Sequence record: PZ445134.1 | Strand: one strand, 5' to 3' | DNA from: a phage | DNA: 64,000 bases | Program-made: the position numbers and the translations under genes | The notes under the pieces: model-generated | What the model was told of the DNA's origin: nothing | Seen by the model: only the letters and a program-made list of their open reading frames with translations | Database searches by the model: none | In this document: positions 25,534 to 31,987 of the stretch, piece after piece | Position numbering within the stretch: the first letter of the stretch is position 1 | How the letters are laid out: each line of letters begins with the position of its first letter

Positions 25534-25736
25534 TATTCTTCTACATGTTGTTTACGGCCTTTCTTATCAATAAAGGTATATTCAACGAATGTTCCGATGT
25601 AGTCTTTATCTACATCATGTGGACTATTAATTGGACATTTGGTACGACAAATGCGTTCCCATTGACGAATAATTACTGCCTTATTCTTTGGGTCATATGG
25701 ATGTGGATAATGTATATTCATAATAATGGTTCCCAA
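25509..25736 (-). CDS. hypothetical protein
   Basis: 75 aa ORF. Confidence 0.45.
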   Translation of the reverse strand: MGTIIMNIHYPHPYDPKNKAVIIRQWERICRTKCPINSPHDVDKDYIGTFVEYTFIDKKGRKQHVEEYCLKVTWL

Positions 25737-26215
25737 TCAACAATCACAATTTCTAGTTTAGTGGAATATGTATCTAAAATCTCTTCGATTATATCCCAGT
25801 TTCCACCACCAATACCTGCACCAATTCTTGGCATATAAATTACAGGCTTTGTTATCTTATTCTTTCCGAATTCATTTAATTCTATTATACAATTCATTAA
25901 AGCAGAGTACTCAAAATTAGGTCCCGGCTCAAACTGTGTATAAAGATTAAAGCAATAAGCTTTATGGGTCTTAAAATATTTTTCATAAACCGAATAAGTC
26001 CCGAGTTTAGACTCGTCTCCGAATTCGGTTTGAAGTTTATCGGCTTCTAAAATTTTTGGATAAGCCTTTGCTAATTGTCCTGCCACACCGGCGCCCATTG
26101 TATGAAAACAATTACACCCATGAGCGATATTATTACCTTTAGAAAACAGGGCGACGATATCGCCCTTGATATAGTTTTTAATCACTTGCTGCAAGTCCTC
26201 TAGTATAAGAGTCAA
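25718..26215 (-). CDS. macro-domain protein (ADP-ribose binding/processing)
   Basis: 165 aa; glycine-rich motifs HGCNCFHTMGAGVAGQLAK and PRIGAGIGGGNW typical of macro domains. Confidence 0.55.
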   Translation of the reverse strand: MTLILEDLQQVIKNYIKGDIVALFSKGNNIAHGCNCFHTMGAGVAGQLAKAYPKILEADKLQTEFGDESKLGTYSVYEKYFKTHKAYCFNLYTQFEPGPNFEYSALMNCIIELNEFGKNKITKPVIYMPRIGAGIGGGNWDIIEEILDTYSTKLEIVIVDWEPLL

Positions 26216-26525
26216 CTAGGCGGTCTACCATAGAATTGCATGCTGCCTTATCTTTAGGTTCCGCCACCGAGCATTCTAATATTTGCCATTTTTTATGATA
26301 TCGTTTAATTAAGGTAGACGCCTTGAACCTACTAGACGCCCCATCTTTTTCTCCGTCTTTATACGCATATAACAATTTTTGTGAAAAATCTACTTTACAC
26401 TCTTGACTTTTACCGCAATAATCAGACGCTGTTCTGTTTGTATACTCCGTTACATCAGTATATGTAGTATTAGCAAGAGCGTTAAATGAAACCAAGCCAA
26501 CTATTAAAGCCAACATTTTGGTCAT
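26178..26525 (-). CDS. secreted small protein (vs position)
   Basis: 115 aa; signal peptide MTKMLALIVGLVSFNALA; four Cys; same length as T4 Vs but identity not verified. Confidence 0.4.
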   Translation of the reverse strand: MTKMLALIVGLVSFNALANTTYTDVTEYTNRTASDYCGKSQECKVDFSQKLLYAYKDGEKDGASSRFKASTLIKRYHKKWQILECSVAEPKDKAACNSMVDRLVDSYTRGLAASD

Positions 26526-27064
26526 TCTTTTATTTCCAGTAGTTTATTTGATTTAAGGTAATTAGCCTTTTCTAGGACTTCAGAAGCATATTTACTTCCA
26601 GCACTTGTCTTCCATCCCGCATTATATGAGGATATAGCCTTTCTTATATCCCCATTATGTATATTTAACCAATAAGAAAATTCGATATAAGCCCATCTGG
26701 CTGAATTAGACCGCTTAGATAGCATTTTCTTAATTTGGGCATCAGTCATATTATAACCAAGCTGGTTAATTCTTGCCCTCATTGTTGGTAGATAATTTTG
26801 GAACATTCCATACGCATGGTGACCTTTCTTATCTTTAAGATTAATACCGGCAGATGATTCCTGCCATAGTATTGCGGCCATTATGTATCCAAGTCCTTTC
26901 TTATGCATATTTTCATGCGTTTTAAATTTTCCATCCTTAGAAAACTGTTCCCCAAACTGATAAGCATAATTCAAGTTATCGAGTTGGACATTACTAAAAG
27001 TATGCTCGGAGCTATGTGCTGATAATGAAAGAGCAAATAGACCAGCGAGTAGTGCTTTTCTCAT
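26522..27064 (-). CDS. lytic transglycosylase-like protein
   Basis: 180 aa; signal peptide; SLT-like ...WQESSAG... AYGMFQ motifs. Confidence 0.55.
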   Translation of the reverse strand: MRKALLAGLFALSLSAHSSEHTFSNVQLDNLNYAYQFGEQFSKDGKFKTHENMHKKGLGYIMAAILWQESSAGINLKDKKGHHAYGMFQNYLPTMRARINQLGYNMTDAQIKKMLSKRSNSARWAYIEFSYWLNIHNGDIRKAISSYNAGWKTSAGSKYASEVLEKANYLKSNKLLEIKE

Positions 27065-27072
27065 GTTTACCT

Positions 27073-27531
27073 CTAGATTTTAATCACTGCTTTAGAAGCT
27101 TTTCCTGGTAGTCGTTTACTGTTAATAATAGCCATTCTGCATTGAAGAGTCTTCATTTTGAACGCTGGATTTTCGCGACAAACTGTAAGTCCTAACCAAA
27201 GATTTCCATCAGTTATTTCTAAACGGCCTGGGCGATATTCAACACCTTCGACAAAATCTTCATCAACATCTGGACGTGCCGGCATTGATAAAAATTCTGC
27301 AACTTCTTTAACATGATTTTTTACTTTACGAAATAATTCAAAAACGTAGTTCTCATCTATTTCTCTCTGGATGGCACGATCTAAGAGATGTTGAGAATAC
27401 TTGATATGAAAGCCTGGTAGTCCAAGAGACTTTGCAGCATCTTTTATACCGGCATTTATTTTGCGGAACTCCGTTTCAAAGATTCGACGGAGTTTATTAC
27501 GGCGGATAAAAACGTCAGAATTGATAGTCAT
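27073..27531 (-). CDS. regB: endoribonuclease RegB
   Basis: 152 aa; close match to T4 RegB as recalled (MTIN..VFIRRNKLRR..FHIKYSQHLLDRAIQREIDE). Confidence 0.85.
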   Translation of the reverse strand: MTINSDVFIRRNKLRRIFETEFRKINAGIKDAAKSLGLPGFHIKYSQHLLDRAIQREIDENYVFELFRKVKNHVKEVAEFLSMPARPDVDEDFVEGVEYRPGRLEITDGNLWLGLTVCRENPAFKMKTLQCRMAIINSKRLPGKASKAVIKI

Positions 27532-27549
27532 TTTGATTTCTCCTCTAGT

Positions 27550-27588
27550 TGACAGGTCTATAGTAACACAACTAGAGGAGAAGTAAAC
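27550..27588 (-). promoter_or_regulatory. early promoter with dyad symmetry (PeSL-like)
   Basis: minus strand GTTTAC, 17 bp, TACTAT; 10-bp arms CCTCTAGTTG/CAACTAGAGG. Confidence 0.5.
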
Positions 27589-27592
27589 TACT

Positions 27593-27808
27593 TTATTGAT
27601 AAAATGGAGTTAAAGCCCAAGATTCTTTAGATACCATATCGGCGAAATGCCTCATCTCTTCGATTTGGCGACGACGCTGGTCAGCGTAGTCTTCTTCGCC
27701 TTCTTCCTTACAATCTTCAAGGTCTTCTTCAAGATACTTTAAGTATTCACTACAAATTTTGTTGACCTTTTCTTGAAAGTCTAATAACCCTGTAATAGTA
27801 GAAGCCAT
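27593..27808 (-). CDS. hypothetical acidic protein
   Basis: 71 aa ORF. Confidence 0.45.
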   Translation of the reverse strand: MASTITGLLDFQEKVNKICSEYLKYLEEDLEDCKEEGEEDYADQRRRQIEEMRHFADMVSKESWALTPFYQ

Positions 27809-28074
27809 TAGTATTTTTCCTCAGGTCGAAATACTGCACGACACGCCCACATGCTGGCTTCTTTTAGATGTTGCTTAGCATACTTAAGAGCCTGCACTGC
27901 ATCCATATCTTCTTTGGTTTGTTGCTCTGATTCATTTTCTTTCAAGATATATGCTTCTTCAATCAGAGCATCAAACATCAATCCAAGACGGACTTCTGCA
28001 TCTTTAATAGCGTTCACTTTACTGATTTTATCGTCGGTATGCGGCTTGTAGCCTTTGATGTCTTCAATCGGCAT
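27808..28074 (-). CDS. hypothetical protein (vs.3-vs.5 interval)
   Basis: track ORF trimmed to MPIEDIKGYK with SD GAGGAA; 88 aa. Confidence 0.4.
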   Translation of the reverse strand: MPIEDIKGYKPHTDDKISKVNAIKDAEVRLGLMFDALIEEAYILKENESEQQTKEDMDAVQALKYAKQHLKEASMWACRAVFRPEEKY

Positions 28075-28288
28075 AAGGAATTTCCTCATCGGTGGCAAGG
28101 TCATATTCGACCAATTGGATAGGCTCATTAATACCATATCCGCGTACAGTGATATCGGTTGACGGATATTTTCCAGTAATATCACCCGTTCTAAAGGCTT
28201 CAATGAATGATTGCTCGCCTGAGCAACTAAACCAGGCGGCAAAACATTTTAAAACATCTTCAGACCCTTCTATAATCAATTTAGCCAT
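28064..28288 (-). CDS. hypothetical protein
   Basis: 74 aa ORF. Confidence 0.45.
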   Translation of the reverse strand: MAKLIIEGSEDVLKCFAAWFSCSGEQSFIEAFRTGDITGKYPSTDITVRGYGINEPIQLVEYDLATDEEIPYAD

Positions 28289-28650
28289 TATAGACTCTCA
28301 GTAAAGGTACGAGCGATAACGTCGCTCTGTTGTTCTGGAGTCAGAGAGTTAAAGCGAACTGCATAACCGGATACACGAATGGTCAGCTGAGGATATTTTT
28401 CCGGATGCTTAACTGCATCTTCCAGAGTTTCACGACGCAGAACGTTAACGTTCAGGTGTTGACCACCTTCAATTTTAACTTTAGGTTGATGTTCAATTTC
28501 AATTTCACGGGCATTCAAACCGTAGAAAATTTCCGGGTCTACAATAGCGTCTTCTTTAAAAGTCTTAGAGACAATAATCCGGGCCTGGGTACCGTCTTCA
28601 AAATAAATAGTGCCTTTATGCGCACCTTCAAGAATTTGATATGCTTTCAT
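28288..28650 (-). CDS. autonomous glycyl radical cofactor (GrcA/YfiD-like)
   Basis: 120 aa; C-terminal [17 protein letters not shown] glycyl-radical motif. Confidence 0.85.
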
Positions 28651-28656
28651 ATAACC

Positions 28657-28965
28657 TCAATTAGAAAATAAATTTATCCAAGTTTTTTCTTTAATCAAAA
28701 ATGGGTCGGAATTAAACGCCATTAAACTTTGAGTGATTAATCCTTTAAATGACCCATCAATAAATTCCATTTTGAAATGCGGAATACTAGTCATCAACCG
28801 TGCATTAGGAGCAGTACAAAGAACCTGCCGACCTGCGAATGGACCTTTAGTCAAACGATATCGTTTAGGTTTAAAATGGTAGATCTCGTAATTTTCTACA
28901 AGAGCCCTTTTATTGCATACTGGGCTGTTATAACAATACTCAAAAACTTCAATAGTGGTCATCAT
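28657..28965 (-). CDS. hypothetical protein
   Basis: track ORF trimmed to MMTTIEVFEY at ATGATGA junction with upstream stop. Confidence 0.4.
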   Translation of the reverse strand: MMTTIEVFEYCYNSPVCNKRALVENYEIYHFKPKRYRLTKGPFAGRQVLCTAPNARLMTSIPHFKMEFIDGSFKGLITQSLMAFNSDPFLIKEKTWINLFSN

Positions 28966-29501
28966 TGCATTCCAATCACAAAAAATTGAGGACGAGCAAT
29001 ACCGCCGATGCAATATTTGCTTTTGCAACAGTGTTGGACTGTTTTAATATGTATGTTGTAAATCTTATCCATATCAGGAGCTTTAATAGGCTCGTCAATT
29101 ATATACAGAATACGAGAAAGCGTTAATCCACGGAATTTAGAACCTTCATTGCCAATAAAACTACGGACAGAATCAGTAAATAAACGGAATCGAATATCGT
29201 CGCTAGAATAACGAGAAAATTCTTTTTTAATGTTGCCAACAGAAATTTTAGCATAGGCTGAAGTATTAGAAAGAACAATAACTGTTCCACCGTCATACAG
29301 CCAATTAACAGCAAAATTAGTTACTGCAGTCGATTTACCCGATTGTCTGCCGCCGTCTAAACGAAGTGTACAGTACTGCTTGAGTACGTCTTCAAATGGT
29401 GGGGCATAACCGTTCTTACAAATTTCTTCTACTCTAGCATCAGAATGGTGTGTAAAAGCATTCATCAGGGATAGATAAGGTCCAGTTAAAAATGTTCTCA
29501 T
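28962..29501 (-). CDS. P-loop protein, unknown function
   Basis: Walker A GGRQSGKST; start at MRTFLTG preferred, but the frame is open a further 39 codons upstream through a GC-rich leader. Confidence 0.5.
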   Translation of the reverse strand: MRTFLTGPYLSLMNAFTHHSDARVEEICKNGYAPPFEDVLKQYCTLRLDGGRQSGKSTAVTNFAVNWLYDGGTVIVLSNTSAYAKISVGNIKKEFSRYSSDDIRFRLFTDSVRSFIGNEGSKFRGLTLSRILYIIDEPIKAPDMDKIYNIHIKTVQHCCKSKYCIGGIARPQFFVIGMQ

Positions 29502-29673
29502 TTTATTCTCTCTAGGTTTGGGCCGTTCCGTGGCACATGTTAGGTCCTTCGCCTCGCTATGTAAACCCATTACCGCACTTGGGCTCGACCTTATTACAGG
29601 TTGGAAAAGGTACATCACTCAGAGGACTCGACGTTCGTAAGGAGAGGTTGCGTTTCCCTTTATTAGGCAAGAA

Positions 29674-30003
29674 TTATACTCTAGGCTTTTGAGCTTGTTT
29701 GGTATTGGATTCCCATGCGGCTTTGGTAATTTTGTTAGCGGCATAACCAAAGGCACTAGATAGAACACCTTTAGAGTTGAATACATCCAATCCAATAAGT
29801 ACGCCGGCTGTGCTAAATTTAGGAGCAAAGTACGCATTAGTTTTAGAAAGAGCTTTTTTCAATTCAGGGTCTTGAACCAAGCCATCAAAAACGCCTTTAC
29901 TATTTACTTTATATGTTACTTTGGGATTTTTAGCTTCTTCGATAGCAGCTTTCTGTTCTGCAGATAATGTAACTTCAGTGATAAACTCTTGATATGTTTT
30001 CAT
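29674..30003 (-). CDS. internal-protein-like protein with capsid targeting sequence
   Basis: starts MKTYQEFITE (CTS consensus MKTYQEFIAE); track ORF trimmed to this Met. Confidence 0.65.
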   Translation of the reverse strand: MKTYQEFITEVTLSAEQKAAIEEAKNPKVTYKVNSKGVFDGLVQDPELKKALSKTNAYFAPKFSTAGVLIGLDVFNSKGVLSSAFGYAANKITKAAWESNTKQAQKPRV

Positions 30004-30077
30004 TTTGTTCTCTCTAAATTTGGGCCATGGAATGGCCCATGAATTGTCCATTTCTGTATTTACCACTCCAAGTAATT

Positions 30078-30115
30078 ATGAATATACTATCACAATTTTA
30101 GGAGAAAGTAAACTG
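30078..30115 (-). promoter_or_regulatory. early promoter
   Basis: minus strand GTTTAC, about 18 bp, TAGTAT; 5' UTR would include hairpin GGGCCAT-TCC-ATGGCCC at 30022-30038. Confidence 0.4.
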
Positions 30116-30418
30116 TTATTTACCTTTAATTACTTTAGCTGCTTCGATAGCCGCTTGCTGAAGGTCATCCATAGACATACCGAATTTAGAAGCAAAGTTA
30201 TCAATTTTCTTTTCGACAGCATTCAAAGGCTTGGCCTGTTTACCTTCATTAGCGCCAGGAAGAGCGAGAATACGCTCTTTGTCAATATAAAGGCTTACAA
30301 GTTTCTTACGGTCTTTATCGGACAAATCATGAAATGAATGGGCCTTTTTATTTATAGCGGATTCTAATTTACCTGCACTCACTCGCGCTTCTGCAATAAA
30401 TTCTTTATACGTTTTCAT
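30116..30418 (-). CDS. internal-protein-like protein with CTS (IPIII-like N-terminus)
   Basis: starts MKTYKEFIAEARVSAGK; resembles T4 IPIII N-terminal region as recalled. Confidence 0.65.
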   Translation of the reverse strand: MKTYKEFIAEARVSAGKLESAINKKAHSFHDLSDKDRKKLVSLYIDKERILALPGANEGKQAKPLNAVEKKIDNFASKFGMSMDDLQQAAIEAAKVIKGK

Positions 30419-30439
30419 TTTTGTTTCCTTGTTTGTTTT

Positions 30440-30480
30440 GATAGAGTAATTATACCATATTAATACTTAAGCGTAAACTG
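30440..30480 (-). promoter_or_regulatory. early promoter
   Basis: minus strand GTTTAC -35 and TATAAT-like -10. Confidence 0.45.
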
Positions 30481-30481
30481 T

Positions 30482-30742
30482 TTAAGCTTTACCGCCAGAA
30501 ATAATTCCGAAGTTGTTAAAATCGTATCCAATATCGTCAACATCTACTTTAGGGCTTGCTACAACATAAGCAATTTCACTACGTTTTGCATAGGTGTTGA
30601 TTTCTTTACCATCGCCACCTAAGAAAGAATACCCATTACGTTTTAATGAGCCAAAGTCTTCCGCATCACCAATGAAAGCTTTAACTTTAAATTTATGACC
30701 TTTGGCATCTGCTTCAGCGATAAATTCTTGATACATTTTCAT
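30482..30742 (-). CDS. internal-protein-like protein with CTS
   Basis: starts MKMYQEFIAE. Confidence 0.6.
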   Translation of the reverse strand: MKMYQEFIAEADAKGHKFKVKAFIGDAEDFGSLKRNGYSFLGGDGKEINTYAKRSEIAYVVASPKVDVDDIGYDFNNFGIISGGKA

Positions 30743-30748
30743 TTTTCC

Positions 30749-31162
30749 TTAGTAAATTGATTTACCATAGTATTTGTACCAAGTAGGACGTTGGGCAATT
30801 TTTTCGTCTAAGCGTGCTTGACTTATCGCAATGGACGCTTCGGACGGGACATAATTATTACGAAATTCGGCAGGGATGTCGGAAATATCCTGGACAGTCG
30901 TGTCCTTGATTTTGAAACCACGTTTCAAGCATTCAGCGATTAGCTCGATTTGTCGTAAACGTAAAAATTCGAGTTTGTCGTAAAAGAATGTTACGTGACC
31001 TGTGCCTAAGATAAATGTTGGAGAGATTTTAAAATCCTTTACACGTTTACCGTTTTGAACATGTTTACGGACTGCACCAAATACGCGTGGTAATTCACGA
31101 TACTCAGCCATAAGATGTTGGTCGGTCAGTTCAGAAACAAGTGTTAAATTGATACGAGTCAT
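30749..31162 (-). CDS. denV: endonuclease V, pyrimidine dimer DNA glycosylase
   Basis: [34 protein letters not shown]... matches T4 DenV as recalled; start moved to MTRINL. Confidence 0.88.
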
Positions 31163-31184
31163 AATTTCCTCCAAGTAGTTGATG

Positions 31185-31220
31185 AATGTATAGTATCAAA
31201 GTCCTTGGAGGAAGTAAACA
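31185..31220 (-). promoter_or_regulatory. early promoter
   Basis: minus strand GTTTAC -35; TACTAT/TATACA -10 region. Confidence 0.45.
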
Positions 31221-31502
31221 CTATTTTTCTGAAGCGCCTGAAATATATTTTTCAAGACGTTGTTTCATTAGCGAGCCGTTCTTAGCGATTTCTTCCGGTT
31301 TATCGCACATACGCAACAAGGCTTCAAGCTTAACGATATCACTGGTGCGCTCAAATTTGCGAGTATCTATCTTACTAGCAAGTTCAGAAATACGTGCTAA
31401 TAGACTTTCGGCTTCAACCAAAGCTGCACCTAGCTTAGTTGCAAATGTGTCAGTAGCTTCGTTAAGAATAGATTCTGATAAAAATTCACTATATGTTTTC
31501 AT
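31221..31502 (-). CDS. internal-protein-like protein with CTS
   Basis: starts [10 protein letters not shown] after trimming; overlaps e stop by 4 nt. Confidence 0.55.
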
Positions 31503-31987
31503 ATATACGCTTTCCAAGTTCCTGTTTTAAATGTTGAGATTACGCGTTTCGCGCGATTAGGTGTCTGACGATACCATTTAGACTTGGCTAGATTTACTGC
31601 CGCTTCATCCCAACGTTTCTGTTGAAGCATACGAAGAGAATTAGTAAAACCAGCAACGCCTGCTACACCCATTTGGAAGACCATATTGACCAATGCACAT
31701 CGACGAACTGCATCTAAAGAATCATATACCGGTTTAAGTTTAGCATTACCCAAGATTCCGCGAACGGCTTTATCAACGTCTTCATTAAATAGCTTTTCAG
31801 CCTCATCAAGGGTAATTGTACCGTTGCATTTACGTCCGATCATTCTGTCAAGTTCAGCTTTAGCTACGGCTAAAGACGGGTTCTTTGTTACTAAATGACC
31901 TATGCCAATAGTCCAAAAGCCTTCAGTGTCTTTGTATAAAGCCAGTCTAAGACCTTCGTCATTACGAAGCATTTCAAATATATTCAT
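31499..31987 (-). CDS. e: lysozyme (endolysin) e
   Basis: [32 protein letters not shown]... about 75-80 percent identical to T4 lysozyme as recalled; start moved to MNIFEML. Confidence 0.92.

Follow-up and report, generated by a model that had tools for sequence, protein, structure and literature searches.

Here, we analysed a 64,000-nucleotide stretch of phage DNA (record PZ445134.1; hereafter the window), in which positions 27593-28650 of the minus strand hold the orthologues of T4 vs.3, vs.4, vs.5 and vs.6, with all four open reading frames (ORFs) at the coordinates listed below. The block corresponds to the early genes vs.3-vs.6 of T4 in their RB69-type version. Our main subject is vs.6, whose 3' half is predicted to be a conversion tract derived from the E. 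coli gene grcA. The window belongs to a Mosigvirus (RB69-like) phage: ~2.7 kb around the vs block is 97-98% identical at the nucleotide level to RB69 and its relatives, the gene order at the locus is that of RB69 and other Mosigvirus genomes, and from regB to denV the minus-strand ORFs correspond one-to-one to the RB69 annotation. A preliminary description of this DNA had placed a block of small genes between regB and denV, and its coordinates and description agree with the ORFs, the Pfam REGB_T4 match and the RB69 annotation.

The vs.6 gene and its product

The features of vs.6 are the following.

28288..28650, minus strand: vs.6, GrcA/YfiD-like autonomous glycyl radical cofactor, 120 amino acids (Pfam Gly_radical, PDB matches, T4 Y06I orthology)
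28473..28650, minus strand: 5' part of vs.6, gene nucleotides 1-178, with 96/178 mismatches to E. coli grcA (46% nucleotide identity) and 28% amino acid identity to GrcA
28298..28472, minus strand: 3' tract of vs.6, gene nucleotides 179-353, codons 60-118 (structured glycyl radical domain), putative conversion tract derived from E. coli grcA
28366..28368, minus strand: codon of the predicted radical glycine Gly95 in the RVSGY motif (motif position; alignment to GrcA Gly102 and PFL Gly734)

The protein is encoded by a stand-alone 120-codon ORF between vs.7 and vs.5 and is devoid of the catalytic barrel of a full glycyl radical enzyme. It contains a C-terminal Gly_radical domain (Pfam, 2.8e-18), matches E. 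coli GrcA (PDB 6OWR) at 1.5e-41 and the C-terminus of pyruvate formate-lyase (PFL) at 4.6e-26 (64 residues, PFL 696-759), and shares ~93% of its amino acids with Tequatrovirus vs.6. Its last 60 residues are 98% identical to E. coli GrcA. The preliminary description had recognised a stand-alone GrcA-like glycyl radical module with a C-terminal half near host GrcA; both points held, the first by the Pfam domain, the 6OWR match and the already known T4 Y06I orthology, the second at the amino acid and likewise at the nucleotide level. On its sequence, vs.6 is the orthologue of T4 vs.6/Y06I, an autonomous glycyl radical cofactor, and this identity was known before. It resembles T4 Vs.6/Y06I and GrcA in size, in the two-part architecture and in the RVSGY motif, and it occupies the genomic position of T4 vs.6. 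It differs from both by R109S and further private GC to AT changes, synonymous or nearly so; compared to GrcA, its N-terminal half also lacks 7 residues in length and has no more than 28% identity. The R109S substitution (window position 28326, motif EQQRDV) is one of five private GC to AT changes in the tract of the window. Position 109 is an arginine in the other sampled phage copies, except for an asparagine in the T5-like phage Bf23; it is also an arginine in E. coli and Klebsiella GrcA, and a glutamine in PFL.

The part of PMC8683613 that cites Wagner 2001 names T4 Y06I and E. coli YfiD/GrcA as the only two biochemically validated spare-part proteins for oxygen-cleaved PFL; according to the same part, PFL activase installs the glycyl radical on them, upon which the activity of the cleaved enzyme is restored. 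The disordered residues 1-60 of YfiD help it to bind cleaved PFL; its residues 61-127 are structured and adopt the fold of PFL 693-759. From the orthology with T4 Y06I, we infer that vs.6 would likewise be activated by PFL activase and rescue cleaved PFL. Following the T4 orthologue, it would serve host PFL as a stand-alone spare part: PflA, the activase of the host, would place the radical on Gly95, the C-terminal domain would substitute for the PFL piece removed by oxygen, and anaerobic or micro-aerobic energy metabolism would thereby be kept going in the infected cell.

By tblastn, 1,589 phage records contain vs.6, T4-like phages of Aeromonas and T5-like phages among them, and Nolan et al. 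(2006) saw it, along with few other ORFs of then unknown function, kept in every T4-like genome of their comparison. Owing to this wide distribution, the vs.6 gene as a whole is old in phages and no recent acquisition. Identity to GrcA is 80-98% over the last ~60 residues of all phage copies and only ~20-35% over their N-halves.

Mosaic structure of vs.6 and its relation to host grcA

The vs.6 gene is a mosaic. At a breakpoint between gene nucleotides 178 and 179, the mismatches of the window to E. coli grcA drop from 96/178 to 8/182 (nucleotides 179-360; Fisher p = 1.3e-27). The 5' part tracks the phage phylogeny and is under purifying selection (window versus T4: synonymous divergence, dS, 0.55; non-synonymous divergence, dN, 0.056). 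The 3' tract begins six codons inside the structured domain of GrcA and stops two codons short of the stop codon. Within its 171-nucleotide core, the number of differences to E. coli grcA is 1 for T4, 2 for RB69, 5 for the window and 0 for two metagenomic phages; the five of the window (28390, 28378, 28336, 28330 and 28326) are all GC to AT. Over the last 60 codons, nucleotide identity to E. coli grcA reaches 95.6% for the window, 97.2% for RB69 and 98.3% for T4, with 88-97% of the codons identical, compared to 72-83% of nucleotides and 40-60% of codons for RB43, Slopekvirus, Karamvirus, Krischvirus, Aeromonas phages and a T5-like phage. The same division appears at synonymous sites of the C-part: dS to E. 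coli grcA is 0.17 (window), 0.09 (RB69) and 0.045 (T4), versus 1.5-2.2 (i.e. saturated) for the RB43, Slopekvirus, Karamvirus and T5-like copies at equal amino acid conservation. A recent host tract was found in none of the sampled Karamvirus, Slopekvirus, Pseudotevenvirus, Krischvirus, Aeromonas and T5-like phages, which show 26-42 differences to every sampled host.

A megablast of the whole window against 5,426 complete E. coli genomes returned a single match per genome, at window positions 28280-28472, and nothing else. Conversely, E. coli grcA matched 753 phage records by megablast, and these matches always begin at grcA nucleotide 199/200. In a GC profile of 150-nucleotide resolution the tract shows only a weak bump (0.46), and the GC content of third codon positions (GC3) was more useful. 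The preliminary description had suggested recent acquisition from the host: this holds for the 3' ~175 nucleotides, which are recent host sequence (dS 0.17), and fails for the gene as a whole, which is old and whose N-half follows the phage phylogeny. Ordinary phage-lineage divergence from GrcA, which it had set against its own suggestion, was found in the 5' half and clearly not in the 3' half. We also considered pflB and tdcE as donors and rejected them, as the tract has GrcA-specific residues and matches grcA rather than pflB. Past the stop codon, a TAA-GGCT-AA similarity was seen, which is too short for interpretation. The Tequatrovirus OES_C-2 (extracted locus 229-585) has a 6-nucleotide in-frame linker deletion just upstream of the tract (EIEIExQP to EIETQP), and, of the GenBank phages listed, it has the tract nearest to E. 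coli grcA (99.5%).

We compared the tract with grcA of 80 other species, further E. coli alleles and six Klebsiella grcA loci. The nearest other genus to E. coli grcA, represented by Citrobacter amalonaticus, lies 13 tract differences out of 171 away, and no other genus lies closer. The 14 copies from Tequatrovirus and Mosigvirus all fall into one cluster with Escherichia grcA in a neighbour-joining tree of the 175-nucleotide tract (bootstrap 282/300, 94%). Between these two phage genera there is not a single fixed tract difference, while their N-parts differ at 18-22 of 177 nucleotides (~11%); the two metagenomic phages, one of each genus, share a single tract sequence, which is that of E. 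coli grcA, with N-parts that differ at 19/177. This lack of any fixed tract difference despite diverged N-parts argues that the tract is much younger than the Tequatrovirus-Mosigvirus split, or was repeatedly reset. The phage tract variants 192G, 204A and 219C are bases that also segregate among E. coli/Escherichia grcA alleles (three sites, in a small sample). A scan of IMG/VR for the exact pattern of the vs.6 5' end yielded 6 loci only, too few for a population analysis; in one Jiaodavirus-like uncultivated virus genome (UViG 2974754850), the vs.6 frame breaks after ~42 codons, due to either a frameshifted pseudogene or a sequencing error.

Is E. coli the only donor? The Klebsiella-infecting Jiaodaviruses have a phage-type N-half (73% nucleotide identity to the window) joined to tracts that differ at 5-11/171 positions from grcA of the K. 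pneumoniae complex and at 26-33/183 from that of E. coli. The six hosts nearest to any given Jiaodavirus are all Klebsiella, with different members nearest to different Klebsiella alleles, and the nearest other genus to the Klebsiella grcA tract is 14 differences off. Their vs.6 carries the Klebsiella-type residues LLDAVEH, and the Jiaodavirus-Klebsiella clade has a moderate bootstrap (183/300). Probably, a separate conversion event with Klebsiella grcA occurred in the Jiaodaviruses, and the process would then be recurrent. The alleles shared with E. coli, the Klebsiella-type tracts and the constant start of the 753 phage matches point to more than one event. The Salmonella phage PSE-D1 (extracted locus 401-763) has a vs.6 tract of the K. 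pneumoniae type (5/171 differences), and Tequatroviruses isolated on Hafnia, Yersinia and Salmonella have a tract of the E. coli type.

Acb2 and the neighbouring genes

The genes around vs.6, from regB to denV, are as follows.

27073..27531, minus strand: regB endoribonuclease, flanking marker (Pfam REGB_T4 8.8e-69; RB69 annotation)
27593..27808, minus strand: diverged vs.3 homologue, 71 amino acids, acidic (40% identity over 65 amino acids to T4 vs.3, E = 9e-12)
27808..28074, minus strand: vs.4/acb2, 88 amino acids from the ATG (Pfam, PDB 7UQ2, synteny with T4 vs.4)
28064..28288, minus strand: vs.5, 74 amino acids, function unknown (phrog_1986 2e-38; RB69 annotation)
28657..28965, minus strand: vs.7, 102 amino acids, function unknown (phrog_2049 1e-47; RB69 annotation)
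28962..29501, minus strand: vs.8-like ORF, ~179 amino acids, function unknown (phrog_1488 6e-78; RB69 annotation)
30749..31162, minus strand: denV endonuclease V, far flanking marker (translated sequence; position as RB69 denV)

The T4 acb2/vs.4 gene is an established sponge against the cyclic oligonucleotide-based antiphage signalling system (CBASS). For T4 and PaMx33 Acb2, hexamer formation and the sequestration of nucleotides, which blocks the CBASS effectors, have been shown (PMC10312549 among the sources). The preliminary description had proposed 27808..28074 as the Acb2 candidate by size and position, and the alignments agree: the protein gives a full-length match to the Pfam profile Acb2_Tad1_hairpin (PF24729, 8.2e-18), matches the solved structure of T4 Vs.4 (PDB 7UQ2) with E = 9.5e-30 and is 64% identical to T4 vs.4 in syntenic position. 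Judged by these matches, vs.4 is Acb2, again a known identity, and it would be a small protein that mops up the cyclic dinucleotides with which CBASS-type defences raise the alarm. In Acb2, the cyclic dinucleotide pocket is built by the N- and C-terminal segments; these are nearly identical between the window protein and T4 Vs.4, whereas the central hairpin (residues ~38-66) is strongly diverged. In PaMx33 Acb2, the tyrosine and lysine essential for cyclic dinucleotide binding are Y11 and K26 (PMC10312549). The window protein has Y9 and K24 with the same spacing (IKGY, 15 residues, K) in segments identical to T4 Acb2; here, the residue spacing was compared with the published positions of PaMx33. 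The window protein thus shares with T4 and PaMx33 Acb2 the family and the pocket residues, and with T4 the locus, while differing from T4 in the hairpin and at two further positions: the equivalents of PaMx33 R67/T74 are D61/T68 in T4 and Q61/Q68 in the window. T4 Acb2 binds dinucleotides and leaves the cyclic trinucleotide cA3 unbound (PMC10312549); the residues Q61/Q68 in place of D61/T68 lead us to expect a T4-like lack of cA3 binding in the window protein as well. The mechanical ORF of vs.4 extends further upstream, to a TTG.

The 71-residue vs.3 homologue equals RB69ORF117c and matches phrog_2037 (2e-29, function unknown); a Pfam search with it gave no match. The 18 N-terminal residues of vs.5 are 78% identical to T4 vs.5. 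The vs.8-like ORF has a weak match to phrog_2 (1e-6), the ATPase region of large terminases, and is annotated as a P-loop nucleoside triphosphate hydrolase in one related genome. Between vs.8 and denV there are several small ORFs resembling internal proteins. Four small minus-strand ORFs at 29674-31517 have near-identical leaders (including MKTYQEFITE, MKTYKEFIAE and MKMYQEFIAE), similar to the leader that targets T4 internal proteins to the capsid; the adjoining RB69 genes are annotated as internal head proteins. On the other side of the block, 25718-26215 and 26522-27064 hold a tk.4 homologue (A1pp phosphatase motif according to the RB69 annotation) and vs.1; the latter has a signal-peptide-like N-terminus and a marginal match to SLT lytic transglycosylases (E = 0.0013, below the Pfam cut-off). 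Scanning 27000-30200, we found promoter-like sites at chance level (10 versus 9.1 expected) and terminator-like matches without an interpretable pattern.

Origin of the host-like tract

We consider it likely, at a probability of roughly 80%, that vs.6 is a chimera, i.e. a phage-lineage gene for a PFL spare part, the C-terminal domain of which was overwritten by host-to-phage gene conversion, probably in a recurrent manner. In the infected cell, host DNA fragments containing grcA would pair with vs.6 over ~175 nucleotides, a region in which unpatched phage copies are ~75-83% identical to the host, such that the strongly conserved domain itself would provide the homology. The 3' ~175 nucleotides of vs.6 would then be replaced by E. 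coli grcA sequence via homologous recombination (gene conversion), and the boundaries of the tract would arise where strand exchange or annealing halts at the end of homology. In phages with hydroxymethylcytosine (hmC) DNA, the host copy would presumably serve as a template without being incorporated. After the transfer, the tract would drift to the AT-rich composition of the phage, as the five private changes of the window copy suggest. Such conversions might be neutral, or favoured by a restored exact match to host PFL and its activase.

Several points weigh against gene conversion from the host. The recombination is deduced from sequence comparisons. The tract is short (175 nucleotides), the Jiaodavirus-Klebsiella clade has only 183/300 bootstraps, and the notion of several independent E. 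coli donors rests on the three coincident polymorphic sites. Identity reaches both boundaries of homology, which needs flap trimming or an annealing-type recombination and not a classical double crossover with long flanks. Moreover, T-even phages break down the DNA of the host and exclude DNA that contains cytosine, and therefore the host copy would have to act as a template instead of being incorporated. Finally, the benefit of vs.6 to the phage in vivo is putative.

Could the C-half have stayed host-like without any recombination, by purifying selection for a fit to host PFL and PflA together with convergent codon use? The protein constraint is real, since the last ~60 residues are conserved in every phage lineage, including the Aeromonas and T5-like ones. 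The synonymous sites, however, go beyond what protein selection accounts for: with the same amino acids, RB43, Matisse, KMB19 and Bf23 have a dS of 1.5-2.2 and 44-56% identical codons, whereas T4, RB69 and the window have a dS of 0.05-0.17 and 88-97% identical codons, and protein selection therefore cannot explain the tract. Nor is host codon bias the cause, because RB43 and FL37 infect E. coli too, and the host genera themselves differ by 7-12% in the tract. This explanation is thus very improbable. We give even less credence to a reverse transfer, in which E. coli and Klebsiella would have taken the 3' half of grcA from phages. A two-way intragenic exchange has been proposed for cyanophage psbA; yet the E. 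coli tract stands in about the same relation to Citrobacter, Trabulsiella and other genera as does its N-part (92.8% versus 88.1% identity to C. amalonaticus), and host grcA sits in a conserved ung-grcA context. The tract GC3 is more host-like than phage-like (0.60 in Jiaodavirus, compared to 0.23 in its own N-half), and the private changes of the window are all GC to AT, as for host DNA ameliorating in an AT-rich phage. Together with the nesting of the phage copies with Escherichia grcA, these features indicate that the transfer ran from host to phage, after Escherichia had split from its sister genera.

A closer competitor, although we hold it to be rather unlikely, is a single host-to-phage conversion in an ancestor or in one lineage, followed by phage-phage spread across Tequatrovirus and Mosigvirus in co-infections, without ongoing host exchange. 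The common 5' limit of all 753 matching phage records at grcA nucleotide 199/200, the ready recombination of T-even phages among themselves and the star-like pattern around the E. coli allele, which fits a recent sweep, all speak for it. A sweep limited to the 175 host-homologous nucleotides would be awkward, however, as the adjoining 177 nucleotides, also homologous between the phages, stay 11% diverged. In addition, phage variants coincide with E. coli polymorphisms, and the Jiaodaviruses, whose members are nearest to different Klebsiella alleles, show at least one separate Klebsiella event. A different question concerns the client of vs.6, which might be the phage anaerobic ribonucleotide reductase NrdD, a glycyl radical enzyme cut by oxygen, unless vs.6 mainly titrates the host activase. 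In Aeromonas phage 65, vs.6 (extracted locus 1360-1722) directly follows nrdD-nrdG, in the Krischvirus FL37 (extracted locus 1492-1908) it lies just before nrdC, and Nolan et al. (2006) suggested a role in nucleotide metabolism. We regard both variants as improbable: the vs.6 domain is of the PFL type by its match to PFL 696-759 and in T-even phages is literally host GrcA sequence, the window copy does not adjoin nrd genes, and T4 Y06I reconstitutes cleaved PFL according to the part of PMC8683613 citing Wagner 2001.

We found no report of the vs.6/grcA nucleotide mosaic in the searchable literature, including Nolan 2006 and Petrov 2010; a mention in Miller et al. (2003) or Wagner et al. (2001) is possible. 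The nearest known case is the intragenic host-phage recombination in psbA/psbD of cyanophages (Zeidner 2005; Sullivan 2006, PMC1484495). There too, a T4-like lytic phage swapped segments of an auxiliary metabolic gene with the host homologue, with patchy GC content and host-specific clustering. The vs.6 tract differs in being a single, sharply bounded block that corresponds to one structural domain and has 0-5 differences to a living host allele, in that, outside the block, vs.6 and the host gene have diverged beyond nucleotide alignment, and in its presence in the model phages T4 and RB69.

The identities of the genes in the block carry little weight, Acb2 and Y06I being known; the mosaic weighs more. 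T4 and RB69 are usually regarded as sealed from host DNA by hmC modification and by the breakdown of host DNA. Host-to-phage gene conversion, as we read the mosaic, would be a clean and datable case in these best-studied lytic phages, and a route to measuring how often lytic phages sample host sequence. It also suggests selection for an exact match of the spare-part domain to host PFL and its activase. The tract may be a better guide to host history than the host of isolation, and it may be a short marker of the recent host genus of a T4-like phage. We further propose, tentatively and at somewhat less than even odds, that T-even-type phages copy the structured domain from the grcA of the local host again and again, so that the spare part exactly matches the current host. 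If true, a strictly lytic phage, which destroys the DNA of its host, would be matching its own allele to a host template, and the 175-nucleotide tract would be a built-in record of recent hosts, as in the Klebsiella-type tract of a phage isolated on Salmonella.

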